From Myxococcota bacterium (GTDB lineage: Bacteria > Myxococcota_A > Polyangia > Nannocystales > Nannocystaceae): 64,000 bases of DNA. Where the stretch lies: the NCBI GenBank assembly GCA_039028615.1, contig JBCCHT010000016.1, positions 96,001 to 160,000 of the forward strand. The letters run 5' to 3'. The position numbers and the translations under genes are program-made. This document shows positions 30,988 to 49,769 of the stretch, one piece after another. The notes below the pieces were generated by a model. That model saw only the letters and a list, made by a program, of their open reading frames with translations. It was not told the origin of the DNA and did no database searches. How positions within the stretch are numbered: position 1 is the first letter of the stretch; each line of letters starts with the position of its first letter.

Positions 30988-32544
30988 TCACAGGGCGATG
31001 GAGTCGATCTCGCCCACCCAGTGCTTGCTGTCGATCCCGTTGTCGATGAACGAGCCTACGAGGTCGAACACGGCGTCGGAGAAGCCGCCCACGTTGAGGA
31101 TGTCGTCCCGCTCGGGGGCCTGGGTGTTGGGGTAGGGCTGGATGTCGATGCAGACCAACTTGGCCTTGGGGTTGCGACGCTTGTACTTCGTCCACTCGGT
31201 CATGACCTGCGTGCCGGGGTTCCAGCTGCGGGTCTCGTCGATCCACGACTGGTTGTCCGAGACGAAGACCACCAGGTCACCCGTGGCCTTTTGCGCGTTG
31301 AGCCGAGCCAAGGGGGCCGCGCACTTGGTGCCGCCGCTGGGCAGCGAGGCCAAGCGATTGGCGTTGGTCATGATGCTGTCGCGGGGGTTGAGGGGGCAGG
31401 GCTGGACGCGATCGTGGAAGGGCAGGACGTTGGTCTTAGGGTTGGTACGCAGGAACGCGGCGGCGATGAGGGCCGCGATGTCGATGCAGCGGACCACCGA
31501 GGTGGCGCCGGGGCGGTGACCGGTGGCGGCCGAGTGCATGGAGCCTGAGATGTCGGGCAGCACGTGCACGGTGCCCTGGGTGCGAGGCACGTTGGCCACC
31601 GCGATCTCCATGGCATCCTGCAGGGCTTCGCGAACGGGCAGCGGGACTCGCTCGTCGAGCTGGGTGTAGGCCACCATGAGCTGGTAGGGGAACACTCGGG
31701 CGCGACGCACCTCCTTGGGGGATGCGAGCCGTCGCGCGATCATGCGTACGGTGTCGGGGTTCTCGAAGACGCCGTGGCGGGCGAAGGTGTTGAGGTTCAT
31801 GCGGGTCATCTGCCAGCCGGCATCGCGGGCGATCTGCGTCCACGCCGAGGTGTCGAGCGACAGCGCGGTGAGGAGCTGGAAGGGGACCTTGGGGATGTGC
31901 GTGGTGTGCCCGTTCTTGTACGCGAGGTAGTCCTTCACGATGGTGGGCAGGGCGTCGGGGTCGTGGGGGCGGCCCACGAGGTAGCCATACAGGGCCCGGC
32001 GCTCGGCGTCGGGAGGCGTGGGGTGGACCATCTTGATGACGTCGGCGAGCGAGGGGCTGGTGCCCACGCTGGCGCGCAGCAGGGCCGAGGCGGAGCGGTC
32101 ACCAAGCCAGCGCTTGACCAGTCGCTTGGGGCGGCTACCGAGCGAGCGTCGGCCGGTCACGCCGCTGCGGAGGATCTGCACGAAGTTGCGCAGCATCTTG
32201 CCGTTGTCACAGACCCGGTCGAAGGCCGGCTCGAGCCAGTCGCTGCCGCGGCTGGCCAACACGGCCAAGAGCAACGCGGGCATGTCCTTCATGTGCGCCT
32301 TGGTCCGAGCGTAGATCGCCGTGCGAGCGATGAACGTATCGTCGATATCCTTGGTCAGCGCGAGCACCTCGTCGAGCTGATCGGCCTGCGAGGAGTAGTA
32401 GGTGTTGCCGAAGCAGCCCGTCGCGGCGTACTGCGCCAGCGCATGCTCGCTGTCGAGCCGGTAGGCCTTGCCACCGGCCTGGTTGATGGTGTTGGCGGCG
32501 GGGACTCGGCGGGCAGCGGAAGAGAACAGGTGCTTGTTGGCCAT
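30988..32544 (-). CDS. rsr: Ro60/TROVE-domain RNA-binding protein with vWA domain
   Basis: NQAGGKAY, GCFGNTYY, QMTRMNLNTFARHGVF, vWA MIDAS DISGSM and VSDNQSW. Confidence 0.93.
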   Translation of the reverse strand: MANKHLFSSAARRVPAANTINQAGGKAYRLDSEHALAQYAATGCFGNTYYSSQADQLDEVLALTKDIDDTFIARTAIYARTKAHMKDMPALLLAVLASRGSDWLEPAFDRVCDNGKMLRNFVQILRSGVTGRRSLGSRPKRLVKRWLGDRSASALLRASVGTSPSLADVIKMVHPTPPDAERRALYGYLVGRPHDPDALPTIVKDYLAYKNGHTTHIPKVPFQLLTALSLDTSAWTQIARDAGWQMTRMNLNTFARHGVFENPDTVRMIARRLASPKEVRRARVFPYQLMVAYTQLDERVPLPVREALQDAMEIAVANVPRTQGTVHVLPDISGSMHSAATGHRPGATSVVRCIDIAALIAAAFLRTNPKTNVLPFHDRVQPCPLNPRDSIMTNANRLASLPSGGTKCAAPLARLNAQKATGDLVVFVSDNQSWIDETRSWNPGTQVMTEWTKYKRRNPKAKLVCIDIQPYPNTQAPERDDILNVGGFSDAVFDLVGSFIDNGIDSKHWVGEIDSIAL

Positions 32545-32594
32545 GATGGGCTCCGTTTCATGCCGCCGATGGGGCGGCCGACGCAGAGTTATTG

Positions 32595-32611
32595 AGCACG
32601 CACCGGGCCAA
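32595..32611 (-). promoter_or_regulatory. Sigma54 (-24/-12) promoter of the rsr-Y RNA operon
   Basis: Minus strand TTGGCCCGGTGCGTGCT = GG-N10-GC, about 50 nt upstream of rsr. Confidence 0.7.
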
Positions 32612-32750
32612 CCGACGCCGAGTCTCGTCGGGTCGGGGCTATTTTCTAGTGATTACGGACCATTATGGGGTTCTGGAGAGTTCGCGTGGGCCGAGCGTTG
32701 TCGGTCTATTCATATCTATCTGTATCGCTTCGTATTGAACTGGAGCGCAG

Positions 32751-34364
32751 CTAGTCGCGAGGTAGATCCTTCCATTTCAGGTCGTACTTCGCCAGGTACT
32801 TGCGCAGCCGGTCCGCGTCGTTGACCGAAGTTCGAGCTCGACGCGACGCCGCAAAGAGGGTGCGGCCCGCCTCCGACAGGGTGCGGCTGCGTCGGCAGAC
32901 CCGGAGCACTGCCGCCAGCTGTACTCGATCGAACAGGTCCAGATCATCGAACGCATCCGAGCCCAGGGCCTCGTCGATGAGCTCCCGGTCGCCGCTGTCG
33001 GCTTGCCCGCGATTCCAGCTCTTCTCGAGCCGTGCGCGCTCGGCCTCGACGACGCTGCGGTTGATTCGCCCGCCCGGCGCGAGCGTGGCCATGCGTTCCA
33101 CCGCGGCCGAAAAGTCCCGGAAGTTGCCCTTCCAGGCGGCGGCGGGCGAGGTGGCAAAGCGCAAGAAGGTCTGCCGGGCCTCCTTGTTGAAGGTGACGCG
33201 AGCGTTTTCTCGGGCGGCGTAGCGGGACAGCTCGTACTCGAGGTTGGGGGCGATGTCCTCGGGCCGCCGGGCGAGCCCCGGAAGCTCGAAGCTCCACAGG
33301 TTGATCCGTGCCAGCAGATCCTCGCGGAAGCGGCCCTTGTCCACCGCCTCGCCCAGGTCGCGGTTGGTGCCCGCGATGAGCTGGAAGTCGCTGTCGACCT
33401 CGCGATCGCTGCCCACGGGGAGGAAGCGCTTGTCCTCGATGGCTCGCAGCAGCATGGCCTGTTCATCGAGGCCGAGTTCGCCGATCTCGTCGAGAAAGAG
33501 CACGCCATCGTCGGCGCTGCGCAGCACACCCGGTCGGTCCTTCACCGCGCCCGTGAAGGCTCCCTTGGCGTGGCCGAAGAGCATCGACATGGCCTGGTCG
33601 CCCCGGAGCGTGGCGCAGTTGATCTCCACGAATTTGCCGCGAACCTGCTTGCGTTGGCTCTTGAGATCGAAAATCCGCCGCGCCAGCCGGGTCTTGCCCG
33701 CCCCCGTCGGCCCGGTGAGCAGCACGGGGGAGCGCGAGCCGATGGCCACGTGCTCGATCTGGGCGATCAGCTCGTTGAAGGCCTTGTTCTTGGTGTCGAT
33801 GCCTGCCTTGAGGAACGACAGCCCCTCGCGCTGGTCCTGGCGAAAGCGCGAGGCGATCTGGTCGTACTTGCTGAGGTCGAGGTCGATGATGCGAAAGGTG
33901 CCCGGCCCGTCGGCGTTGGTGCGCCCGCCCGGCGGCGAGCTCTGGATCAGCCGGGCCGGCAGCTCGCGCGACTCGGTGAGCAAGAACCAGCAGATCTGCG
34001 CCACGTGGGTGCCCGTGGTGATGTGCACGAGGTAGTCCTCGGAGGTGCGGAAGCGATACGCTCGGGTAAAGTCGAGCAGCGCGGCGTAGACCTCCTCGAA
34101 GTCCCAGGGGTCCTCGAACTCCAGCTGGTGGTGTCGAACCTCCGTCTCGGGCGAGATCTGGGCGATGTCCTCGGCAACGGTATCGGCCAGGCGCGTGAAC
34201 TGGGACTGACCGAGCAGCTCGAAGCGCGAGACCAACAAGTCCTCGTGGCGGCATACATCGACGGTGGGGCGCCACCGATTCCAACGCTTCGCACCACGGC
34301 CGGCATCGAGGGTAGGACCGAGCAGGCCGAGCACGACGACCGGTTTGGGGCTTCGGGACGCCAT
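32751..34364 (-). CDS. rtcR: RNA repair transcriptional activator (CARF + sigma54 AAA+)
   Basis: RWNRWRPTV, DPWDFEEVY, VHITTGTHVAQI, GPTGAGKT, GAFTGA and NDADRLRKYL. Confidence 0.96.
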   Translation of the reverse strand: MASRSPKPVVVLGLLGPTLDAGRGAKRWNRWRPTVDVCRHEDLLVSRFELLGQSQFTRLADTVAEDIAQISPETEVRHHQLEFEDPWDFEEVYAALLDFTRAYRFRTSEDYLVHITTGTHVAQICWFLLTESRELPARLIQSSPPGGRTNADGPGTFRIIDLDLSKYDQIASRFRQDQREGLSFLKAGIDTKNKAFNELIAQIEHVAIGSRSPVLLTGPTGAGKTRLARRIFDLKSQRKQVRGKFVEINCATLRGDQAMSMLFGHAKGAFTGAVKDRPGVLRSADDGVLFLDEIGELGLDEQAMLLRAIEDKRFLPVGSDREVDSDFQLIAGTNRDLGEAVDKGRFREDLLARINLWSFELPGLARRPEDIAPNLEYELSRYAARENARVTFNKEARQTFLRFATSPAAAWKGNFRDFSAAVERMATLAPGGRINRSVVEAERARLEKSWNRGQADSGDRELIDEALGSDAFDDLDLFDRVQLAAVLRVCRRSRTLSEAGRTLFAASRRARTSVNDADRLRKYLAKYDLKWKDLPRD

Positions 34365-34461
34365 GCCCGAGTATTATCCATTTCGATAAATTACGGTATG
34401 GAGAGATATGGGAGGGGCTCGGGCGATTATCTAAGTATTTGAAAATACTCGAAGGGAGGCG

Positions 34462-34477
34462 TGGCTCGGGTCCTGCT
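34462..34477 (+). promoter_or_regulatory. Sigma54 (-24/-12) promoter of rtcBA
   Basis: TGGCTCGGGTCCTGCT = GG-N10-GC. A TTATC-N6-GATAA inverted repeat lies upstream (34374-34389). Confidence 0.7.
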
Positions 34478-34510
34478 CTTAGTTCGGGTGTCCCACGGAC
34501 CAAGGAACCG

Positions 34511-35761
34511 ATGATGGAGACCCAGACCAAGACCCCGACCCAGTACAAGGTGATGAGCGAGACCGGCGGTGTGCCCGTGAAGCACTGGACCCGCGGCGTG
34601 CCGGTCGAAGACGCGGCCCTGCGCCAGCTGTCGAACCTGGCCCGGCTGCCCTTCATCCACCGCTGGGTCGCCGCCATGCCGGACGTGCACGTCGGCGTCG
34701 GTGCGACCATCGGCAGCGTCGTGCCGACCAAGGGCGCGATCATTCCCGCGGCGGTCGGCGTGGATCTCGGCTGCGGCATGATGGCGGTGCGGACCTCCCT
34801 GCGGGCCGCGGACCTGCCCGACTCGCTCGGTCACGTGCGGGCGGCCATCGAGGCCGCGGTCCCGCACGGCCGTAGCGGCGACCGTCGTCGCCGGGATCGC
34901 GGTGCATGGGGGACCCCGCCCACCGCGGTCGCCAAGGCCTGGACCGACACGCTGGCGACTCGCTTCGACGCCATCACGACCAAGCACCCCAAGATCCGAC
35001 AGAGCAACAACCTCGTGCACCTGGGCACCCTCGGTACGGGCAACCACTTCATCGAGCTGTGCCTCGACCAGGCCGATCGCGTGTGGGTGATGTTGCATAG
35101 CGGCTCGCGCGGCGTCGGAAACCGCATCGGCAGCTACTTCATCTCGAAGGCCAAGGAGGACATGAAGCGATGGTTCGTGAACCTGCCCGATGCCAACCTG
35201 GCCTACTTCCCCGAGGGCACCAGCCACTTCGAGGACTACTGCGAGGCGGTGACCTGGGCGCAGGACTTCGCGCGGACCAACCGCGAGCTGATGATGGCGG
35301 CCACGCTGCAGGCGCTCCAGCAGGTGTCTTCGTTGCCCCCGTTCACGGCCGATCTCGAGGCGGTGAACTGTCACCACAACTACGTCGCGCGCGAGCGCCA
35401 CTTCGGTGCCGACGTCTGGGTGACCCGCAAGGGCGCGGTTCGGGCCGGCGAAGGCGAGCTGGGGATCATCCCCGGCAGCATGGGCACGCGCTCGTATATC
35501 GTCCGCGGTAAGGGTAACCGCGACAGCTTCTGCTCGTGCAGCCATGGTGCGGGCCGCAAGATGTCGCGGACGGAGGCCAAGCGCCGGTTCACGCTCGAGG
35601 ATCACATCGAGGCCACCAAGGACGTGGAGTGCCGCAAGGATGAGGCCGTGATCGACGAGACGCCCGGCGCGTACAAGTCCATCGACGACGTGATGAAGGC
35701 GCAGTCCGACCTCGTCGACATCGAGCATACGCTCCGCCAGGTCGTGTGCGTGAAGGGTTAG
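34511..35761 (+). CDS. rtcB: RNA ligase RtcB
   Basis: MPDVHVG, VGVDLGCGM, GTLGTGNHFIE, LHSGSRG, HHNY and SHGAGR. AAGGA RBS before ATG 34511. Confidence 0.97.
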   Translation: MMETQTKTPTQYKVMSETGGVPVKHWTRGVPVEDAALRQLSNLARLPFIHRWVAAMPDVHVGVGATIGSVVPTKGAIIPAAVGVDLGCGMMAVRTSLRAADLPDSLGHVRAAIEAAVPHGRSGDRRRRDRGAWGTPPTAVAKAWTDTLATRFDAITTKHPKIRQSNNLVHLGTLGTGNHFIELCLDQADRVWVMLHSGSRGVGNRIGSYFISKAKEDMKRWFVNLPDANLAYFPEGTSHFEDYCEAVTWAQDFARTNRELMMAATLQALQQVSSLPPFTADLEAVNCHHNYVARERHFGADVWVTRKGAVRAGEGELGIIPGSMGTRSYIVRGKGNRDSFCSCSHGAGRKMSRTEAKRRFTLEDHIEATKDVECRKDEAVIDETPGAYKSIDDVMKAQSDLVDIEHTLRQVVCVKG

Positions 35762-35762
35762 G

Positions 35763-36815
35763 ATGACCACGATGAGCCAGACTGCAATCGTCGTCGACGG
35801 CTCCGAGGGGGAGGGCGGAGGGCAGATCCTCCGCTCTTCCCTCGCGTTGTCGCTCGTGACCGGGACGCCGCTTCAGATCCGCGAGATCCGGGCGCGGCGA
35901 CGCAAGCCCGGGCTGATGCGCCAGCACCTCACCGCGGTTCGAGCCGCGGCCGAGGTCGGCGGGGCCACGGTCGAGGGGGACGAGCTGCGTTCGCTTCGGC
36001 TGAGCTTTTCGCCCGGCACGGTGAAGGCCGGGGAGTATCGGTTCTCGGTCGGCACTGCGGGCAGCATCACCCTGGTGCTCCAGACGGTGCTCTGGCCGCT
36101 GCTGCTCGCCGAGGGGCGCTCGACCGTGGTGCTCGAAGGCGGCACCCACAATCCCATGGCGCCACCCTTCGACCACGTGCAGCGGAGCTTGCTCCCGCTG
36201 CTGCGGCGAATGGGGGCCAGCGTCGAGCTCGAGCTGCGGCGTCCGGGGTTCTATCCCGCAGGTGGAGGCTGCATGATCGCGACGATCGACGGTGGTCGTT
36301 CTTTGTCGCGACTCGACTGCCTCGAGCGGGGGTCGCTCCAGGGCGTTGTCGCGCGAGCCCAGGTCTCGGAGCTGCCCGTGTCCATCGCGCGACGGGAGCT
36401 CGCGGTCGTGCACGAGCGACTGGGCTGGACGCAGCGGGAGCTTCACGTCGAGCGCATCGATGCGCGGGGTCCCGGCAACGTGCTGATGCTCGAAGTGACC
36501 CACGAAGGTGGCACCACCGTGGTCTCTTCGTTCGGGGCCAAGGGCGTCACCGCGGAGCAAGTCGCCGAAAACGGCATCGCCGAGCTCGATCGCTTCCTCG
36601 CGGCGCAAGTCCCGATCGACTCCCACTTGGCCGATCAGCTGCTCATCCCCATGGCGCTCACGGGCGGAGGGAGCATGCGCAGCACCAAGCCCACCATGCA
36701 CACACGAAGCAACGCGGCGCTGATCGAGCGGTGGCTGCCGGTCTCCATCGGGTTCACCGAGCAGGCCTGCGGGGCGTGGCAGATCGAGGTGGCGCCGCGC
36801 GGCGCCACGAAGTGA
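35763..36815 (+). CDS. rtcA: RNA 3'-terminal phosphate cyclase
   Basis: DGSEGEGGGQILR, KPGLMRQHL, GFYPAGGG and HLADQLL. Confidence 0.96.
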   Translation: MTTMSQTAIVVDGSEGEGGGQILRSSLALSLVTGTPLQIREIRARRRKPGLMRQHLTAVRAAAEVGGATVEGDELRSLRLSFSPGTVKAGEYRFSVGTAGSITLVLQTVLWPLLLAEGRSTVVLEGGTHNPMAPPFDHVQRSLLPLLRRMGASVELELRRPGFYPAGGGCMIATIDGGRSLSRLDCLERGSLQGVVARAQVSELPVSIARRELAVVHERLGWTQRELHVERIDARGPGNVLMLEVTHEGGTTVVSSFGAKGVTAEQVAENGIAELDRFLAAQVPIDSHLADQLLIPMALTGGGSMRSTKPTMHTRSNAALIERWLPVSIGFTEQACGAWQIEVAPRGATK

Positions 36816-39945: not shown

Positions 39946-41172
39946 TCAGGCCGAAGCCGCAGCGTCGACCGGCACAGGCTTGAGCACGCCTGCGCGAAGT
40001 AGTCGGGTCACCAATACGCGCTTCGAGCCTTCGGTGACCGAGTCGGGGAGCTCGTCGACCTCGAAGCTGCCGTCCGCGTCGGCGATGAACTCGAGGGCGG
40101 CCGCCACCTGTCGTGGGGCGCGGATGGTCGCGGCTGGCTCGCTGCCGGGCCAGGCGAAGGAGACATGCTCACCCGTCGTCTCCACCACGCAGTCGATGCC
40201 TTCGCGCTTGCGGACTCGCGTACCGCCATCGACCTCGGTGTGCAGGGCGGTCTGGAGGTCGAGCTGTCCGTCCCGGAGCGGAGCGTCGGGCAGGCGCGTG
40301 CGCTGAATCAGTGCCTCGAGTGCGCTCGCATCGAGGTTCTCGGCACAGCGAGCGAACAGTCGTCGGGCGTGCTCGGCTTGATCGGCCAGATCGAGCGGCA
40401 CCGAGCGACGCAGCTCGGGGTCGGTCTGTGCCATGTCGAAGAGCATGTCCGCCATGACCTCGTGCCATTGCGGGCGGTGGATCCCGATGGTCAGGTGCAG
40501 CGACTGCTCTTGCTGGGCGCTGACGTCGTGCACGGTGCCGCGCGGGAGGTAGAGGAAGTCACCGGGGGAGAGCACCAGATCGTGGGTGGGCTCTGCCTCC
40601 CCGAGCGGCTGCTTGAACACGGCCTTGCGCGGCTTGACGGGCAGCTCTGCGCCCTCGCCGTACAGGCGCCATCGCTTGGTCCCCGCGATCTGCAGGACGA
40701 TCACGTCCATGTAGTCCCAGTGCGGGGCCAGGCCCTGGGTGCCGCCGGGGGTGAGGTAGAAGCCGATGTCGACGCGGGCGCCGAGCGTGCGGCCCAGGTT
40801 GCGGGCGAGCTTGCCCAGCGCGCGGAACTGGTTCTCGATGCGGTAGCCGACCACGGTGTCGCCGGCCAGGTGGCGATCGCGGATCCAGCTGGCGATCGTC
40901 ACTTCGCGCTGTCGGGAGCCGAAGCCCGGGAGCGCGCGGAGGTGGGGTGGAGATTGGCGTTGCCCGTCCCGAAAGACACCGAAGCGATCGTCCGACGACA
41001 AGTAGCCTCGCGTCAGGAGATCGTCGACGTCGTCGAGATCGAAGAGCCCCTCGAAGCGCCCGGTGTCCCCGCTGACATGCAGCGGCGCACGCTCGAGAAA
41101 CTCGTCGACGAAAGTCGCAGCGGTATGCGGAGCGAGGAGGTCGTCGAGATCGAGGGAGTGGGCGTGGCTCAT
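39946..41172 (-). CDS. JmjC/cupin-4 2OG-Fe(II) oxygenase (YcfD/NO66-like) with C-terminal winged helix
   Basis: YLTPGG.QGLAPHWD..DV.VLQIAGTKRWRLY (HxD), LSPGDFLYLPRGTVH (distal His) and SLHLTIG. Confidence 0.9.
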   Translation of the reverse strand: MSHAHSLDLDDLLAPHTAATFVDEFLERAPLHVSGDTGRFEGLFDLDDVDDLLTRGYLSSDDRFGVFRDGQRQSPPHLRALPGFGSRQREVTIASWIRDRHLAGDTVVGYRIENQFRALGKLARNLGRTLGARVDIGFYLTPGGTQGLAPHWDYMDVIVLQIAGTKRWRLYGEGAELPVKPRKAVFKQPLGEAEPTHDLVLSPGDFLYLPRGTVHDVSAQQEQSLHLTIGIHRPQWHEVMADMLFDMAQTDPELRRSVPLDLADQAEHARRLFARCAENLDASALEALIQRTRLPDAPLRDGQLDLQTALHTEVDGGTRVRKREGIDCVVETTGEHVSFAWPGSEPAATIRAPRQVAAALEFIADADGSFEVDELPDSVTEGSKRVLVTRLLRAGVLKPVPVDAAASA

Positions 41173-41268
41173 CGGGATACGGTGGGGCGGTGACGGAGTC
41201 GTGGGAACGCGTTGTGGGAGAAGTACGGCGCGGTGGCGAACGAGTTGTTCACCACCGCGATCCAGGCG

Positions 41269-41448
41269 TTAGATGTGCGCCCAGTGGCCGTCCCAGTTGT
41301 GCACCGACAGGGGCTTCGGCGGGCCGATGGGGCGCGGCGAGGCGGTCGGGGTGGGGGCCCCACCCACGACGCTCTCCAGCATCTCGTCGGTCAGCTCGAA
41401 GGGCTCGGCGGCGGTGGAAGTCTTGGGGGCTTTGTCTTTGTCAGTCAT
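41269..41448 (-). CDS. 59-aa putative RiPP precursor with a double-glycine leader
   Basis: Hand translation: MTDKDKAPKTSTAAEPFELTDEMLESVVGG-APTPTASPRPIGPPKPLSVHNWDGHWAHI*. High GC3. Below the length cutoff of the ORF track. Confidence 0.75.
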   Translation of the reverse strand: MTDKDKAPKTSTAAEPFELTDEMLESVVGGAPTPTASPRPIGPPKPLSVHNWDGHWAHI

Positions 41449-41511
41449 CGCTTGGGGTAGAGCCGCGAGTCGGCTTCTGGATCAGCGAAAAACCGAAAAA
41501 AACGACGAGGC

Positions 41512-42103: not shown

Positions 42104-42937
42104 CTATTGCTTGGACAAGGTGCGGCAGAAGATCCGCAGGCGACGGATCTTGCCGTTGCGCGTGTCGTACTTGAGCTTGAGCCCGCTCATGACGTGCTGA
42201 TCGGGGCACTGCAGCTGGGTCAACGGACCGATCCAGAAGGTGCTGCCGTGGAGTGGCGCCCACCCGGTCCAGTCGGGCGAGCTGTAGCTGCCCAGGAACC
42301 CACCGACCTGCTCGGAGACCTTCAGGATGCGGAACGACTTGATGTACGCGTCGTAGGGTCCGGCCTCGAAGAACACTCCAATGGGGTACTCGTCGGGATC
42401 GGTGATCGCGATGGTCTCGCCCGGCAGCCGATGGTTGCCGCTATAGACCTCGTCCGTCGCGGTGGTGGAGGTCTGGAGGAAGTCGCCGTCGATGTTCTCG
42501 TACTCGGTGCACGTACCCTCGAGGCGGGCGATGAAGTTGTCGAGGTTGCTCGTCGGCTCCTTGTAGGCGCGCAGATCGGTCAGCAGGAAGTTGGGTCCGT
42601 GGTCGGCGTTGCAGAACACCCGCTTCCACGACGACAGGCTCGTGGTCTTGCCCGAGTCCCACTCCTCGGTCACCGCAGTCTCGCCCAGCACCCACTCCTC
42701 CACGTCCTCGTCGTCACCCGGCCAGGGCCACGGGTGGGGGAGTGCCCCGGGGACGCCCGGGAACGGGTTGGTGGCCTCCAGCGGGTCGACTTCGAGCACG
42801 AGATCGTCGATGGGCTGATCGTCGCCCGTGGGCTCGAGCTCCATCGCATCGATCTCGAGATCGAGGTCGCTCTCGGCGACGCAGCCGAAGGACAGCAGGA
42901 TCATCAGGGGCAGGGCAGAGCGGGGGCGCGTGTGCAT
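42104..42937 (-). CDS. Hypothetical lipoprotein
   Basis: Lipobox SFGC, an acidic linker and a Cys-containing beta-rich domain. Confidence 0.65.
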   Translation of the reverse strand: MHTRPRSALPLMILLSFGCVAESDLDLEIDAMELEPTGDDQPIDDLVLEVDPLEATNPFPGVPGALPHPWPWPGDDEDVEEWVLGETAVTEEWDSGKTTSLSSWKRVFCNADHGPNFLLTDLRAYKEPTSNLDNFIARLEGTCTEYENIDGDFLQTSTTATDEVYSGNHRLPGETIAITDPDEYPIGVFFEAGPYDAYIKSFRILKVSEQVGGFLGSYSSPDWTGWAPLHGSTFWIGPLTQLQCPDQHVMSGLKLKYDTRNGKIRRLRIFCRTLSKQ

Positions 42938-43100
42938 GGCTTCGTCTTCCAACCCGCTAGAGATGCGCGCCCGGGTTTCGGATCACGAGCAACGGCGTCA
43001 CCGTAGTGAGAAACCGCGATCGGGGTTTGCCCCGGAGTAGGCCGCTCGGCCGGGGTCGTTCGTTACCCCGCCTCGGAAGGCCGGGTGGTACGGTGCGTCC

Positions 43101-44117: not shown

Positions 44118-47100
44118 CTACCTGCGCGACGTCACCAGGATGAACATCGCTGGGGTCGCCACCATCGCGAAGAGCGTCCCCGCGAGCAGGCCCCCGATGA
44201 TCGCGCCCGCGAGCGGGAACCACTGCGGGTTGGACAGGGCCAGGGGCACCATGCCGACGAGGGTGGTGAGGGTGGTCGAGAGGATCGGTCGCAGGCGGCC
44301 AGCGGCTCCCACCGCGGCGGCGCTCTCGATCGAGTGACCGTCGCGCCGCAGCTCGTTCATCGACGAGATCATGACGATGGCGTTGTTCACCACGATCCCG
44401 ATCAGCGAGATGATGCCGATGAGGCCGGGGAACGAGATCGGCTCGCGGAAGACGACGAAGAACACCAGCGTGCCCGTGAGCGACAGCGGGACCACGAACA
44501 TCATGGCGAAGGGCTGGCGGAACGAGTCGAACTGGATCACCAGCACGGCGAACACGAGGAACGCGGCGAGCCCGAGCATGCGAAAGGCGGAGCCGAAGGT
44601 CTCCGCTTGGCTCTCGGCCTCGCCCGCCTGGGCGAAGGCAATGCCGGGGTGCTCCTTGGCGAGCACGTCGAGCCGCGGCTGGAGCTGCTCGAGCACCTCG
44701 CCCGCGGTCACCCCGGACACGCGCGCGGTGACGCTGACCGCTCGACGCCCGTCGTAGTGGGTGATGGCCAGCGGTGCGTTGACCAGCTTGGCCATGGCCA
44801 GTTCCCGCAGCGGCACGGGCCGCCCTTCGTTCGACATGACCGTGAGGGCGAAGGCCTCCCACTGATCGGTGGGCCCACCCGGCTTGCCCTTGCGGCTGGG
44901 CCAGGCGGTGCCGACCCGAACTTCGAGGTCGTCGCGTCCTTGCCCCAGCGGGAACTTCATGGCCTCGTCTTCCGCGAAGCCCAGGCGGACCTGAGAGGCG
45001 AAGTCGCCGATCGAGATCCCGAAGAAATCGAGGGCCTCGAGATCGGGGGCGATTTCCAGGGTGGGGCGGACCTGGCCGAGGTTGTCGTCGATGTCCACAG
45101 CGCCCGGGATCTCGGCGAGCGCCTGCCGTACCTGCCCCGCCGTCTTGCGCAGGGCATCGAGGTCATCCCCCATCACCAAGACCTCGATCGGCGAGTCGGC
45201 GCCGCCCTGGGCCTGCGGGGAGTAGGTCATCAGCGAGCCGGGGCAGGCCCGCAGCGCGGTGGCGAGCTCGGAACGCAGCGGCTCGAGGTACGCCACCGAG
45301 ATCTGGTCGCGGTCGTCCTCGGGGGTGAACTTGGCGGAGAACCCGATGATGTAGGTGTCCTCCTCCGGGCGCAGAGTCGAGGAGATTCGTGTTCGGGTGA
45401 AGGGCGACGCCCGGCCCACGAACTTGGTCACCGACTCGAGGTACGGCTTGCCGCGCAGCTGTTCGCCCACCTGGTCGGCGCAGCGCTGCGACAGCTCGAG
45501 CCCCGCGTCGGCCGGCATGATGATGCTTATGCCCAGGTTGCGACCGTCGGTGTCGGGGTACAGCTGGGAGGGCAGCGTACCCGCGGCGACCACCGAGGCG
45601 AGGAACATTCCCATGCAGCCGACGGCGACCAGCACCGCCCGCACCCGGCTCTTCACGACCACGCGGCTGATGAACTTCTCGAGCGAGTCCGAGGCGCGGC
45701 TGGTGATCTGGTCGATGCGACTCGGGGCGCGAGCGGCCGGCTTGTTGGGCAGGACGAGCTGTGAGATCGGCACGCAGATCAGCAGCGCGACGACATAGCT
45801 GAGCACCAGGCAGATGATGGCGGTCAGCGGAATGAAGCGAATGAACTTGCCGTCGCTACCGCCGATGGCCATCAGGGGCGCGAGCGCAAAGATGGTGGTG
45901 AGCTGTCCCGCCAGGGCGGGCATGGCATAGGTGCGGATCGTGGAGACGGCCGCAGTGGCGAAGCCCTCGCCGCGCTCGTAGATCGCGGCGTGCATGCCCT
46001 CCATCATCAGGATGAACACGTCGACCAGCAGGCCGAGGGCGAGGATCATGCCGATGACGATGAGGTCGTTGAGCGTGTAGCCGAAGGCCCAGATCACGCC
46101 CAGCGTGGCGAGGAAGGTGACGGGAATGGCGAGCCCCGCCACGATTGCCTCGCGCCAGGTCAGGGCGATGAGCAGCACCACGAAGACGGCGGCCATCGCT
46201 TGCAAAGCGTTGCGGAAGCCGTCACCCAGGGAGTCCTCGATGTCGACGGACTGGTCGGAGGTGATGCGGTACTGCAGACCCTGCGGCCACGAGGGGCCTT
46301 GGCGGGCCGCTTCGAGCTCGGCCTTGACCGCCTGGGCGACCGCGATGGCATCGGCCCCGGACAGGCGCGTCACCGAGACATCGACGGCGGAGGCGAAGGG
46401 TTCACCGCCCGTGCTGATGAAGGCCCGGGAGCGCTCGCGCTCGAGACCGAACTCGATGTCGGCGACCTCCGAGAGTCGGACGACCCGGCCGGTGCCCATG
46501 CGCGCGACCGGAGTCTGGCGCAGCGCTTCGAGGGTCCGCATACGCCCGCGCATGACCAGCACGATCGAACCGGTAGTGGCCTCGTAGCGATCCCAGGGTT
46601 GGTCGCGGTTGGCATCGACCAGGCGCGAGCGCACCGTGCTGCCCGACAGGCCCAGGGCAGCCAGTCGCGATGGCAGCAAGCGCACCCGCACGACCTCGTC
46701 GCGCTGGCCCGAGATGGAGACCTCGTTGACGCCCTTGATGTTCTCGAGTCGGCGCTCGAGAGCGTCTAGGGCCTGACCGCGGGCGATCTCGTCGACCTCA
46801 CCGTAGAGCGACAGCGAGATGATCGGCGCGTTGTTGACCGAGATTTCGCTGATGCGTGGTTTCTCGACGTCGCTGGGGAGGTCCGCCTCGGCCGCGGACA
46901 CCCGCGCGCGCAGGCGGGCCATGGCCGACGCGATGTCCTCGTCGGCCTCGAACTCCACGGCGATGACGCAGAAGGAGTCGAAGGACGCACTCTGCATCTT
47001 GCGGAGGCCTTCCATGGCCTTGAGCTCCGTCTCGAGCTCCGCCGCGACCTGGTTTTCGATGGTCTCCGGGTCGGCCCCCGGCCACTCGACGACGACGGTG

Positions 47101-47249
47101 GCCTGCGGAATCTCGAGGTCGGGCGTCGACTCTCGAACCAAGGAGCCATAGCCGAGCCAGCCGGCCATGACGAACGCGCAGAGCAACAGGATCGCGAAGG
47201 TCGGGCGCAGCAGCAGGAACGAGGTCATGCGGGAGGGAGGCGCCGTCAT
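44118..47249 (-). CDS. RND efflux permease (AcrB/AcrD/AcrF family)
   Basis: 1043 aa with WPGADPETIE, LALGLLVD, GIVVNNAI and RLRPILSTTLTT. Confidence 0.93.
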   Translation of the reverse strand: MTAPPSRMTSFLLLRPTFAILLLCAFVMAGWLGYGSLVRESTPDLEIPQATVVVEWPGADPETIENQVAAELETELKAMEGLRKMQSASFDSFCVIAVEFEADEDIASAMARLRARVSAAEADLPSDVEKPRISEISVNNAPIISLSLYGEVDEIARGQALDALERRLENIKGVNEVSISGQRDEVVRVRLLPSRLAALGLSGSTVRSRLVDANRDQPWDRYEATTGSIVLVMRGRMRTLEALRQTPVARMGTGRVVRLSEVADIEFGLERERSRAFISTGGEPFASAVDVSVTRLSGADAIAVAQAVKAELEAARQGPSWPQGLQYRITSDQSVDIEDSLGDGFRNALQAMAAVFVVLLIALTWREAIVAGLAIPVTFLATLGVIWAFGYTLNDLIVIGMILALGLLVDVFILMMEGMHAAIYERGEGFATAAVSTIRTYAMPALAGQLTTIFALAPLMAIGGSDGKFIRFIPLTAIICLVLSYVVALLICVPISQLVLPNKPAARAPSRIDQITSRASDSLEKFISRVVVKSRVRAVLVAVGCMGMFLASVVAAGTLPSQLYPDTDGRNLGISIIMPADAGLELSQRCADQVGEQLRGKPYLESVTKFVGRASPFTRTRISSTLRPEEDTYIIGFSAKFTPEDDRDQISVAYLEPLRSELATALRACPGSLMTYSPQAQGGADSPIEVLVMGDDLDALRKTAGQVRQALAEIPGAVDIDDNLGQVRPTLEIAPDLEALDFFGISIGDFASQVRLGFAEDEAMKFPLGQGRDDLEVRVGTAWPSRKGKPGGPTDQWEAFALTVMSNEGRPVPLRELAMAKLVNAPLAITHYDGRRAVSVTARVSGVTAGEVLEQLQPRLDVLAKEHPGIAFAQAGEAESQAETFGSAFRMLGLAAFLVFAVLVIQFDSFRQPFAMMFVVPLSLTGTLVFFVVFREPISFPGLIGIISLIGIVVNNAIVMISSMNELRRDGHSIESAAAVGAAGRLRPILSTTLTTLVGMVPLALSNPQWFPLAGAIIGGLLAGTLFAMVATPAMFILVTSRR

Positions 47250-48577
47250 TCCTTGGCCTCCGGTTGGGGCGGCGGCGCGTCGGGGACGATGTCTTCGTCG
47301 CCGATGCGCGCCACGTCGACGCGGCTGCCATCACCCAGGCTCCGACGGCCTCGGGTCACGACCAGCTCTCCCTTGGCCAGGCCGCGGACGATCTCCGCGC
47401 GGTCGACCCCGGAGAGACCCAGCGTCAGCTCGCGTCGCTCGGCTTTGTCGCCGCCCTCGGGCACGACGAACGCGAACGAGTGTTCGTCCTCGCGGATGAA
47501 CGCGTTGAAGGGGACCGCGATGGCATCCTCGGAGGACTCGGTGAGGATGAAGCAGCTGGCGAACTCGCCGTCGCGCAGACGCTCGGGCCGTTGGTGGACC
47601 CTCACCTTGACCAGGATGGAGCGGGCGCTGGGGTCGACCGAGGGGCTGACGGCAAACACGGAGCCCCGAGTCACCAGTGCTTCGGGGCGGACCGCAGGGT
47701 CGTTGGCTTGGGACAAGGTGGCCACGTCCTGCCCGGTGAGCACGAACGCGGGCTGGCCCACGCGAACCTGAGCTGCTTCGTAGGCGGGCAGCTCCACCTC
47801 GATCTCGAACTGCGAGGGATCGATGACCACCACCGGGGCGGTGCGCAACTGCTGGCCGGGATCCGGGCTGACCTGCGCGCCGAAGTTGTAGTCGCCTTCC
47901 TTGATGTTGATGGCGGCCACGACCCCGTCGAAGGGCGCGAAGATCCCCGCGCGCTCTTGGGCGATCTCGGAGCGCTTGACCTGGGCCTTTTGTGCTTTGG
48001 CCCCCGACTTGGCCGAGCGGAGGCCCGACTTGGCCGAGTCCACCGCACTACGGGCGGTGGAGACCCGCGTCTGGGCGTTGTCGACCTCGTTCTGCGTGCC
48101 CGTGCCCGACTTCAGCAGCGACTGGGCGGTGGCGAGGTCTCGCTCGGCCGCCTCGAGCTCGGCCCGGGCCGTCTTGAGCTGAGCCTCCGACGAGAGCCAC
48201 TGCCCCTGCGTGCGCTGCAGCTCGGCGCGGTTGGCTTCCACGTTGGCGAGCACGTCGCGATCGTCGACCTTCGCGATGAGCTGACCGAGCAACTCGTCGG
48301 GCGCGGGGCCTTCGACCGGGTCGCCCGGGCGCAGCTCCCCGCCGTTGGGTCCGCGCGCGACGTAGCTGACCTTGCCCTCGAGCTGGAAGTACAGCGCCTT
48401 GCGGCGCACGGCGACCGCGGTGCCTTGCCCGAAGACCCACGAGTACACCGTTCGTTTCTCGGCCCGCACCGCATGGACCACGGTGGCTGCTCCCGCGGCG
48501 GGTGGAGGCGGGGGCTCGGCTTCACCACACGCTGCGAGCAGCAGGAGGGTCGTCCATGCGACTTTCAGGCGACGCAT
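47246..48577 (-). CDS. RND periplasmic adaptor (MFP) lipoprotein
   Basis: Lipobox LAAC, a coiled coil, IFAPFDGVV and GLAKGELVVTRG. ATG 48577. Confidence 0.9.
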   Translation of the reverse strand: MRRLKVAWTTLLLLAACGEAEPPPPPAAGAATVVHAVRAEKRTVYSWVFGQGTAVAVRRKALYFQLEGKVSYVARGPNGGELRPGDPVEGPAPDELLGQLIAKVDDRDVLANVEANRAELQRTQGQWLSSEAQLKTARAELEAAERDLATAQSLLKSGTGTQNEVDNAQTRVSTARSAVDSAKSGLRSAKSGAKAQKAQVKRSEIAQERAGIFAPFDGVVAAINIKEGDYNFGAQVSPDPGQQLRTAPVVVIDPSQFEIEVELPAYEAAQVRVGQPAFVLTGQDVATLSQANDPAVRPEALVTRGSVFAVSPSVDPSARSILVKVRVHQRPERLRDGEFASCFILTESSEDAIAVPFNAFIREDEHSFAFVVPEGGDKAERRELTLGLSGVDRAEIVRGLAKGELVVTRGRRSLGDGSRVDVARIGDEDIVPDAPPPQPEAKE

Positions 48578-48677
48578 GGGCAGCACAGTACCGCGGAACG
48601 CCCCCTTCGCTCCGTCCCGCGGCAACGATGTTCGACTGCAAGTTTCGCCGCCCGCGCGGCATACTGGGCCGAGGTCG

Positions 48678-49769
48678 ATGAACCGGGCGAGGACGGCGGT
48701 CAAATTCGCGAGCGGCGTCGCGGCAGCGGGCCTGCTCGCGTGCGCGGGTTCGCCGGCGACTTCGCCTCCGCCCTCGTCTCGAGCACGGGTCGAGATCGAT
48801 CTGGCGGCCGAGCCCGACGATCGACGAGCGTGCGGGCGGTGCCACGCGGAGATCATGGCCGAGTGGCAGGCCTCGGAGCATCGCAGCGCGTGGAGTGACC
48901 CGGTGTTCCAGTCGGGGTACGCGGTCGATCGGCAGCCGGAGTGTCGTCAATGCCATGCGCCGTTGAACGCCGAACCCCGAGACCCACTGCCCTCGTCGGT
49001 GGCGGCTCGCAACGGGGTGTCGTGCCGCTCGTGTCATGCCGCGCAGGGGCACATCGCGGGACCCGGCTCGGGTCGAGCCCACGGGGGACCCGTCGCGGCG
49101 GAGTGGGGGACGAGCACCGCCTGCCGGGGCTGCCATGAGTTCGACTTTCCCCGGCCGACGCCGGAGCGCCGCGCCGTCTTCGACCCGCGCGAGCCGATGC
49201 AGCGGACCGTGTCGGAGTGGGCGCAGTCGGGTACGGACTCCACCTGTCAGGACTGCCACATGCCCTGGCGGATCGGCGAGGACGGAGGTCGCTACCGTAG
49301 CCATCGCATGCGAGGCATCGATGACGCGGAGTTCATGGCCTCGGCGGTGCAGGTGCAGCTGCGGGCGAAGATCGTCGGTGATGAAACGGTGGTCGAGGCC
49401 GAAGTCCACGCCGAGACCCTCGGTCATGCCTTTCCGACCGGCGACATGTTTCGGGTGGCCGAGCTCGCGGTGTGGCCCGTCGGGCAGTCGGAGCAGGCGA
49501 AGGGGCTCGAGATGCGCCGCGAGTTCGGGACCGTGGCGCGGCTCGACGACGAGGGCGTGATGCAGGCGTGGGGGGCCGAGGTTCGGGACACGCGGCCCCG
49601 GCCGGGCCGCCCCGTGCGACGGACGTTGCGTTTTGCCGGGGCGCACCCCGAGCTGTCGTGGAGCCTGGTGCATCGACGCATGCCGACCGAGCAGGCTCGA
49701 AGCCAAGGCTTGGTCGAGGTCAACGAGCGGGCGATCGCCCATGGGCGCGTGTCGGCGACCTCCGAGTGA
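48678..49769 (+). CDS. Pentaheme c-type cytochrome lipoprotein
   Basis: Five CxxCH motifs (CGRCH, CRQCH, CRSCH, CRGCH, CQDCH), GHAFPTGD and lipobox LLAC. Confidence 0.88.
   Translation: MNRARTAVKFASGVAAAGLLACAGSPATSPPPSSRARVEIDLAAEPDDRRACGRCHAEIMAEWQASEHRSAWSDPVFQSGYAVDRQPECRQCHAPLNAEPRDPLPSSVAARNGVSCRSCHAAQGHIAGPGSGRAHGGPVAAEWGTSTACRGCHEFDFPRPTPERRAVFDPREPMQRTVSEWAQSGTDSTCQDCHMPWRIGEDGGRYRSHRMRGIDDAEFMASAVQVQLRAKIVGDETVVEAEVHAETLGHAFPTGDMFRVAELAVWPVGQSEQAKGLEMRREFGTVARLDDEGVMQAWGAEVRDTRPRPGRPVRRTLRFAGAHPELSWSLVHRRMPTEQARSQGLVEVNERAIAHGRVSATSE

Follow-up and report, generated by a model that had tools for sequence, protein, structure and literature searches.

A stretch of 64,000 nucleotides (the window) from the genome of a Myxococcota bacterium of the Nannocystaceae (GenBank assembly GCA_039028615.1, contig JBCCHT010000016.1, positions 96,001 to 160,000) was analyzed for two neighboring genes on its minus strand, a short open reading frame (ORF) and, 96 bp downstream, the gene of a JmjC-type Fe(II)/2-oxoglutarate (2OG) oxygenase. 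The two are a real, previously unannotated pair of precursor peptide and enzyme. We consider it fairly probable that they form a two-gene cassette for a ribosomally synthesized peptide with post-translational modifications (RiPP), in which the enzyme binds an L-x4-L leader via a tail resembling a RiPP recognition element (RRE) and hydroxylates a core side chain, and in which a C39 peptidase transporter acting in trans cleaves and exports the product. The pair and its parts are:

41269..41448, minus strand: precursor peptide gene, 59 aa (codon use, third-position bias, seven conserved homologues)
41359..41400, minus strand: leader box FELTDEMLESVVGG, residues 17-30, with L-x4-L and a double-Gly end (7-way alignment)
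41272..41304, minus strand: core end V-H-x-W-D-G-[HN]-x-x-H-I, residues 49-59, the likely modification site (7-way alignment)
39946..41172, minus strand: JmjC Fe(II)/2OG oxygenase gene, 408 aa (PF08007, fold match to NO66)
39973..40230, minus strand: C-terminal winged-helix domain, about residues 315-400, RRE-like, predicted to bind the leader (secondary structure, structural matches)

The precursor gene and its pairing with the oxygenase

An earlier note had described the ORF at 41448-41269, hidden from the gene track, as a precursor paired with the JmjC enzyme. Its 59-residue translation was recovered exactly as given there, and the co-oriented partner indeed carries an intact iron triad of H151, D153 and H215. 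In the host genome of 12.3 Mb and 68% GC, the codon score of the peptide frame was 0.417 bits per codon as compared to 0.451 for the JmjC gene, and the remaining five frames were negative. Furthermore, 32 of the 61 base differences between the three loci, taken over the DNA of the conserved peptide blocks, fell on third codon positions. When the open stretches in all six frames of the genome, 190,431 in number, were scanned with a strict GG-leader pattern, only the peptide ORF matched. Only one sequencing run, a marine metagenome, was found to hold the stretch; its contigs equal the window without differences, and it is possibly the source run.

Two relatives (G001 and G019) have readable cassette loci besides the genome of the window (G000). 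A search with the enzyme returned 124 proteins; among the best 120, seven form a clade of 57-100% identity, the next tier reaching at most 35% across most of the sequence. The nearest homologues with a name bear the label Nannocystales or Deltaproteobacteria. A quick tree built with 70 of the 120 gives the clade a long branch (Shimodaira-Hasegawa-like approximate likelihood ratio test 100). A profile built from three peptides found seven peptides among 89 candidates, and these pair one-to-one with the seven enzymes via the equal size of their longest contigs. Adjacency was read directly at all three loci with readable sequence, the peptide gene lying 105 nt (G001) and 86 nt (G019) upstream of the enzyme gene. 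The earlier proposal of a precursor-like peptide with a dedicated enzyme of the NO66/MINA type is thus upheld by co-conservation across the clade, with similar peptides beside the JmjC homologues in 3/3 loci directly and in 7/7 when the equal size of source contigs is included.

The cassette family is small and narrow. At E ≤ 0.01 the peptide profile matched six of 401 class genomes: three strong matches, all of them cassette carriers, and three marginal ones at E 0.003-0.004, two of which contain internal stops. The clade enzyme occurs in 3 of 151 genomes, the same three that carry the strong peptide matches; reciprocal-best pairs were likewise the same three among peptides and enzymes (chance 1 in 105 by our own count). 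In a phylum sample of 401 genomes a clade member was present in G000 only. A HMMER search over 1.84 billion representatives gave five matches, namely four known peptides and P0128, which was rejected as a repeat protein matching by its leader only. P0128 itself has 481 aa, consists of repeated units of a GG leader and a Cys-containing core, and ends in NHNE. A core-pattern scan gave 28 matches, 26 of them due to chance (lacking the leader or the terminal stop context); the two true ones, L027 and L048, are the same peptides as P0121 and P0123. All eight loci of a metagenome scan were distant (29-35% identity) and were set aside. No further cassette locus came from a single-protein scan of genome contigs, no match from a viral scan, and no longer or fused form of the peptide was found, which is weak evidence.

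Among distant JmjC homologues, counted without the next-tier proteins P0008-P0012 of Streptomyces/Kitasatospora, a clear GG peptide was directly upstream at one of 18 loci (L012), with L013 as a possible second and several loci truncated; none was seen at five further loci. Since distant JmjC loci mostly lack an upstream GG peptide, the pairing appears specific to the seven-member clade. At L012 (contig C370 of G001), the GG-leader peptide at 1267-1446 has a different core and stands directly upstream of a JmjC homologue sharing 30% identity; another JmjC gene follows after about 2 kb.

Anatomy of the peptide

Alignment of the seven peptides revealed two conserved blocks, the leader box and the core end (mean conservation 0.85 and 0.82), an N-terminal tail (0.42) and, between the blocks, a variable, Pro/Gly-rich linker (0.45). 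Double-Gly leaders end in Gly-Gly and carry Leu at positions -12 and -7. The leader box follows the consensus F-x-L-T-x-x-M-L-x-x-x-x-G-G with F17, L19, T20, M23, L24, G29 and G30 invariant in 7/7, so that L19, L24, G29 and G30 conform to this pattern in every member. To this extent the double-Gly leader of the earlier note holds; the reservations are that in the window peptide, with the leader ELTDEMLESVVGG, a Met stands one position before L(-7), and that the score against TIGR01847 was 13.6 bits, below the curated cut-off of 15.7. Position -4 is V, A or T. Leaders comprise 30-33 aa and are followed by predicted cores of 28-35 residues without Cys.

The core end reads V-H-x-W-D-G-[HN]-[WP]-x-H-I-stop, in which V49, H50, W52, D53, G54, H58 and I59 are invariant in 7/7. 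Attention had previously been drawn to the tail HNWDGHWAH: its first His, first Trp, Asp, Gly and last His are invariant and its other residues vary. The second Trp is replaced by Pro in 3/7 peptides (P0123, P0126 and P0127), which speaks against a cross-link needing both Trp, and the His after the Gly is Asn in 4/7. Core Ser and Thr are not invariant, and none lies within the last 11 residues. Family-library scans gave no family match above cut-off for the peptide, and its nearest entries in the ESM Atlas were unnamed clusters (0.89-0.90), to be taken as leads only. Assignment as a lanthipeptide, cyanobactin or azole RiPP was rejected: the cores lack Cys, and no LanM/YcaO-type enzyme is encoded beside the peptide at the three loci. 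What was found, a conserved leader-and-core precursor co-encoded with a modifying enzyme, is what characterizes a RiPP system.

Fold and active site of the oxygenase

The JmjC protein matched PF08007 with E 1.5e-29, and the triad H151-D153...H215 is invariant in 23 aligned homologues. Its model (predicted local distance difference test, pLDDT, 87.8) matched NO66 (4ccn) over the full length with a template modeling (TM) score of 0.74 and E 8.7e-26 in Foldseek; the best PDB sequence match was MINA53 (E 2e-31), that to YcfD being far weaker (E 6e-08). By these matches the enzyme is a JmjC oxygenase of the ribosomal oxygenase (ROX) fold of NO66/MINA53, with a helical dimerization region and a C-terminal winged helix.

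In the predicted models the winged helix comprises strands 329-333, 336-340 and 350-353, and then the helices 354-364 and 381-393, between which the single-domain model alone had a further short helix. Folded alone, the last 86 residues reached a pLDDT of 53 and again placed three strands ahead of the helices. RiPP proteins dominate the top structural matches, with a root-mean-square deviation (rmsd) of about 3 Å over 70-75 residues: LynD (Z 6.0, rmsd 2.9, 72 aligned), TbiB1 (5.2), MINA53 (5.1), the PbtF RRE (5.1) and ThcOx (5.0). The nearest ESM Atlas clusters of the domain were PF20514 WHD_ROXA (0.93-0.94), and Pfam's winged-helix model gave no score for the enzyme at E 0.01. As modeled, the C-terminal winged helix thus resembles an RRE and appears to possess the RRE fold. 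The earlier idea that it binds the leader fared well with respect to the best structural matches, which are RREs, and gained weak support from the predicted peptide-enzyme complex. This complex scored 0.44, as compared to 0.02 for the best control, with 74% contact agreement and a partner pLDDT of at least 48; 116 of 157 solved pairs and 2 of 215 mismatched ones came up to the mark for the score, only 18 solved pairs and both mismatches doing so at ≤ 0.60.

At the rim of the active site the clade differs from its outgroup. G137 occupies a position where 16/16 outgroup rows have Asn, and M155 one where 15/16 have His. Alignment to solved structures placed G137 at NO66 Asn326 and Y139 at NO66 Tyr328. 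G230, which we take to be the equivalent of NO66 Ser421 and MINA53 Ser257, is also found in the outgroup and hence is not clade-specific. In NO66, Asn326, Tyr328 and Ser421 bind the histidines of Rpl8 (PMC4556315, PMC9994133; here and below, published work is cited from the accessible parts of its text). The sequence comparison suggests that the active-site rim has been remodeled in the clade and that a wider pocket may fit a bulkier target such as Trp, because G137 replaces the substrate-binding Asn326 of NO66.

Promoter-like motif, spacer hairpin and genomic context

Two further elements belong to the cassette locus:

41457..41484, minus strand: promoter-like TGATCC-N16-CTCTAC, 8 nt before the peptide ATG (kept in 3/3 loci)
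41229..41259, minus strand: stem-loop within the 96-bp spacer (hairpin in 3/3 loci)

At all three loci TGATCC-N16/17-CTCTAC sits 7-8 nt ahead of the ATG, the spacer within the motif being unconserved. This distance leaves no room for a Shine-Dalgarno site, and no sigma-70 promoter was found ahead of the peptide gene. Judged from its sequence, the motif is likely to be a promoter of the extracytoplasmic function (ECF) sigma type yielding a leaderless mRNA. TGATCC is the -35 box of the Pseudomonas ECF factor PSPTO_1043, for which the -10 box differs (CGTA; PMC5507510). A matrix trained on the G001 and G019 sites found 18 sites scoring ≥ 20 in G000 as compared to 3-7 at seven control spacings. 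By eye, many of the 18 precede genes resembling secreted lipoproteins, and one precedes a precursor of the nitrile hydratase leader peptide (NHLP)-like type. The share of 16-nt spacings was 6/8 in G000, 10/14 in G001 and 3/8 in G019, and 5/29 in five cassette-free relatives. In G019 the motif heads a same-strand run with a 2OG oxygenase and a GG peptide, the last genes of the run encoding HlyD and a C39 transporter; in G001 it stands directly ahead of an HlyD and C39 pair.

Motif counts against the reversed pattern (14 and 8 vs 0) were discarded as support: the five cassette-free relatives gave 2-8 vs 0, and their matches had mostly 17-nt spacing and were coding-like. Likewise rejected was a site before the cluster on contig C63 of G000 described below, with a score of 17.7 within background. 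The motif marks a candidate ECF-type regulon, in which several target starts are close enough for leaderless transcripts. A copy lies in the window itself at 42987 on the minus strand, the window gene 42104-42952 being among the targets resembling secreted lipoproteins.

The hairpins in the spacers of the three loci have unrelated sequences and z values of -2.4, -2.3 and -3.3. Such a structure, recurring by position, likely stabilizes the precursor mRNA or tunes read-through into the oxygenase gene.

No flanking gene is common to the three cassette loci. A role for the nearby resistance-nodulation-division (RND) pump (44118-48856), which the earlier note had left open, is not sustained, as the pump is not common to the other loci; it was rejected as part of the cassette, because, of the window genes at 25,000-60,000, nothing but a generic kinase-like ORF and the gene of the JmjC enzyme had a match in the flanks retrieved from G001 and G019. 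The reported lack of a C39 transporter was confirmed for the 19 window ORFs scanned. C39 matches lie elsewhere in all three genomes (three in G000, on other contigs at C18:215960, C1:736672 and C1:273058, 10 in G001 and five in G019), none of them linked to the cassette, and no second modifying enzyme is linked at any of the three loci. Genes of RNA repair, namely TROVE/Ro60, an RtcR-like regulator (by eye), RtcB and RtcA, occupy window positions 30988-36815; they are ordinary and unrelated.

Proposed mechanism and alternatives

Both genes would be co-transcribed from the conserved promoter, probably as a leaderless mRNA. The winged helix would bind the leader at L19-x4-L24, and the Pro/Gly linker would bridge RRE and active site, bringing the core end into the JmjC site, where one or two side chains would be hydroxylated at C-beta with Fe(II), 2OG and O2. 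A C39 transporter encoded elsewhere would then cut after G30 and export the core. Given hydroxylation, the foremost candidate for the site is the invariant Trp52, with a little under an even chance; one of the invariant His50 and His58 is nearly as plausible, and Asp53 or another residue distinctly less so. The product would be a hydroxylated linear peptide of 28-35 residues or a shorter trimmed end; one may guess, from weak indications, at a secreted signal or a metal-binding peptide rather than an antibiotic. By analogy, the leader argues for this mechanism: its L(X)4L motif is one that MppG requires to beta-hydroxylate Trp in an RRE-dependent way.

Several observations weigh against the hydroxylating cassette. 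No RNA dataset is listed as holding the stretch. The pairing is deduced from equal contig size, and not read, in four of seven cases, and because all seven loci come from one narrow group they do not represent independent origins. Peptide and enzyme distances correlated with a Spearman coefficient of 0.31, which is not significant (477 of 5040 permutations were as high). The leader falls short of the TIGR01847 cut-off, as given above. The RRE match derives from a single-sequence model of low confidence, its Z of 5-6 being of a size that common arrangements also reach, and ribosomal oxygenases without a leader have the same winged-helix domain; the predicted complex scored weakly and came without a stated interface. 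No transporter or protease is linked at any of the three cassette loci, and in G000 no C39 operon carries the motif above background. Finally, MppG strongly prefers a pre-cyclized core (bioRxiv 10.64898/2026.10.04.756588), for which reason a lone hydroxylase acting on a linear peptide would be unusual.

An enzyme that acts alone could also do more than hydroxylate. As a class-defining RiPP enzyme it would desaturate or cross-link the core (His50-Trp52, Trp52-His58, dehydro-Trp, or a ring closure as in crocagin), and the facts that no other enzyme is linked in 3/3 loci and that the invariant residues (two His, a Trp and an Asp) keep a fixed spacing would suit such chemistry. Ring closure in crocagin follows C-beta hydroxylation of Tyr and Trp (PMC10070186), and beta-hydroxy-Trp dehydrates readily (bioRxiv 10.64898/2026.10.04.756588). 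We nevertheless regard this as unlikely: crocagin also needs CgnB and CgnE, the second Trp is not conserved, the closest structures, NO66 and MINA53, are hydroxylases, and so are the single-catalyst Fe/2OG RiPP enzymes MppG, CzlI and BipG/PbsQ. As Fe/2OG hydroxylases that act on RiPPs and depend on leader and RRE are on record, plain hydroxylation is likelier than cross-linking.

The cassette might instead be the orphan part of a dispersed pathway, with other enzymes, possibly under the same promoter, acting before or after an oxygenase that only tailors. The G019 motif operon with its 2OG oxygenase, another GG peptide, HlyD and C39, the HlyD and C39 pair of G001, the motif ahead of an NHLP-like precursor cluster in G000, and the need of MppG for prior cyclization all point this way. 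The core, however, offers no conserved lanthionine or azole site, as Cys is absent and Ser/Thr vary, and specific co-occurrence was shown for no second enzyme, a genome-wide co-occurrence test not having been made. This, too, has little probability in our view.

A bolder combination would make the ROX-fold enzyme the sole class-defining enzyme of a new RiPP class, its winged helix reading the leader, a His-Trp cross-link or ring being formed in a core that echoes the Rpl8 site, and C39 being borrowed via the shared ECF-type regulon; we judge it quite improbable.

Still less credit is due to the possibility that the peptide stays in the cell as a substrate mimic or regulator of a ribosomal-type oxygenase with a cellular protein target. 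It draws on the NO66/MINA53 fold, which extends over the whole enzyme, and on the core end G-[NH]-x-x-H-I, which aligns by eye with Gly214-Asn215-His216-Gln217-His218-Ile219 of Rpl8, the NO66 site (PMC9994133, PMC4556315). This likeness is statistically unsupported, PDB profile searches with the peptide and the core end giving 0 matches at E ≤ 10; moreover, the target His of the NHXH site is Trp or Pro in the peptide, and the host uL2 lacks an NO66-type NHXH site. The clade is patchy (3/151 relatives), unlike a housekeeping modifier, and the leader box matches the core in its degree of conservation. That the short ORF is due to chance or does not code, as the lack of a family match above cut-off might suggest, has a negligible probability, being effectively refuted by the codon score, the third-position bias and seven conserved homologues called as proteins.

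Other candidate RiPP loci

Further candidate loci were noticed in the same genomes. L001:5295-14627 (contig C63 of G000, minus strand) encodes a B12-radical-SAM-like protein, TfuA-YcaO, a 63-aa GG-leader precursor (10299-10108), a PhyH dioxygenase, a radical SAM/SPASM protein, a JmjC fusion and a GNAT protein; this cluster likely makes a thioamidated RiPP. L002:16228-19458 (contig C8 of G000, about 196,200-199,460, minus strand) has a GG-leader precursor of 56 aa, with a B12-radical SAM enzyme and a JmjC/cupin protein next in line. On contig C18 of G000 (214226-218716, minus strand), a graspetide-like precursor with four TTLA[IL]GEE repeats, presumably of the plesiocin type, stands ahead of a probable ATP-grasp ligase, a probable HlyD and a C39 transporter. 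Contig C1 of G000 (732204-738813) holds a pair of short precursors that have GG/GA leaders and a CKCH motif; they lie next to a 503-aa ORF and are divergent from a C39 transporter.

The NHLP-like precursor mentioned above lies on contig C14 of G000 (about 175,200-180,353, minus strand); it has 197 aa, an apparently doubled leader, a Cys/Thr-rich core and a strong motif copy, and is followed by ORFs of 330, 1070 and 609 aa. The motif operon of G019 (L107:4843-12213, contig C39) comprises a 2OG oxygenase, a GG precursor of 72 aa, two proteins (417 and 496 aa) without a confident Pfam match, HlyD and C39, and is possibly a RiPP cluster with uncharacterized enzymes.

Significance and comparison with known systems

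Made up of a single enzyme and a single substrate of 59 residues, and existing in seven natural variants, the cassette comes close to the smallest possible RiPP system. Cluster-finding tools probably miss two-gene cassettes that lack core RiPP enzymes or transporters. If the enzyme did more than hydroxylate, new peptide chemistry would emerge from a little-cultured marine myxobacterial lineage; the likeliest chemistry, though, is hydroxylation of a known kind, and the family counts no more than seven members.

Like NO66/RIOX1, MINA53/RIOX2 and YcfD, the enzyme combines a JmjC domain with its iron triad, a helical dimerization region and a winged helix, and its Tyr139 corresponds to the substrate-binding Tyr; it differs in its identity of only about 23%, in Gly at the positions equivalent to Asn326 and Ser421/Ser257, and in the linked, dedicated peptide gene. 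A 2018 review described what the ROX winged helix does as unclear (PMC6182338). Given the full NO66/MINA53 architecture, the pair bears directly on this domain as a peptide-docking RRE, although MppG already points to a docking role for a related architecture, which lessens the surprise.

The novelty claimed by the earlier note was overstated, since leader- and RRE-dependent Fe/2OG RiPP hydroxylases have been described (the MppG preprint, RREFam042, CzlI, BipG). MppG, from the mpp cluster of Moorena producens, is a leader- and RRE-dependent Trp beta-hydroxylase (bioRxiv 10.64898/2026.10.04.756588). The cassette shares with MppG and its precursor MppE the Fe/2OG His-x-Asp...His triad, a C-terminal RRE(-like) domain, the L(X)4L leader, a Trp-containing core and, as predicted for the cassette, an action that depends on the leader. 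MppE, however, has a folded Nif11 leader of 77 aa, a lanthionine-cyclized heptapeptide core and a multi-enzyme cluster; the window cassette, compared by description only, has a leader of 30-33 aa, a linear Cys-free core and the oxygenase as its only enzyme.

The RRE-Finder model RREFam042, 'Cupin_JmjC_RRE', covers bacterial JmjC-RRE proteins in RiPP-like contexts (PMC12710340). By description, these likewise fuse PF08007 to an RRE-like fold in a RiPP-like neighborhood, but RREFam042 is a bioinformatic category without a stated substrate or chemistry in the accessible text; the searched supplement of that paper does not name the seven-member family. CzlI of curacozole hydroxylates Phe to Tyr, with czlI abutting the precursor gene (PMC11575548), and BipG/PbsQ of biphenomycin hydroxylates Orn (PMC12707348, PMC12257519). 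Both are of the JmjC/cupin Fe/2OG hydroxylase type acting on a RiPP precursor; unlike the cassette, they serve as tailoring steps in large clusters and not in a two-gene system with such a core.

Crocagin CgnC of Chondromyces is also a myxobacterial Fe/2OG enzyme that oxidizes C-terminal aromatic residues, Tyr20 and Trp21 of CgnA (PMC10070186), in a pathway that needs CgnB, CgnE and CgnD, partner genes without counterparts here. Bacterial genes of the MINA/NO66 clade beside peptide-synthesis genes were noted as early as 2010 (PMC2938197). The crocagin core we take to be I-Y-W. No account of the peptide-oxygenase family was found in the literature, including a term search of the accessible text of a 2026 Myxococcota survey (PMC13445942), with subscription journals and preprint supplements outside the coverage. 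In the MppG, CzlI, BipG/PbsQ and RREFam042 systems and in the genes noted in 2010, the oxygenase tailors the product of a larger cluster, as far as their published descriptions go. Hence, the working principle is already known, and what would be new in the cassette, to judge from its genes, is the oxygenase as the sole enzyme, the short leader and the linear core of His, Trp and Asp.

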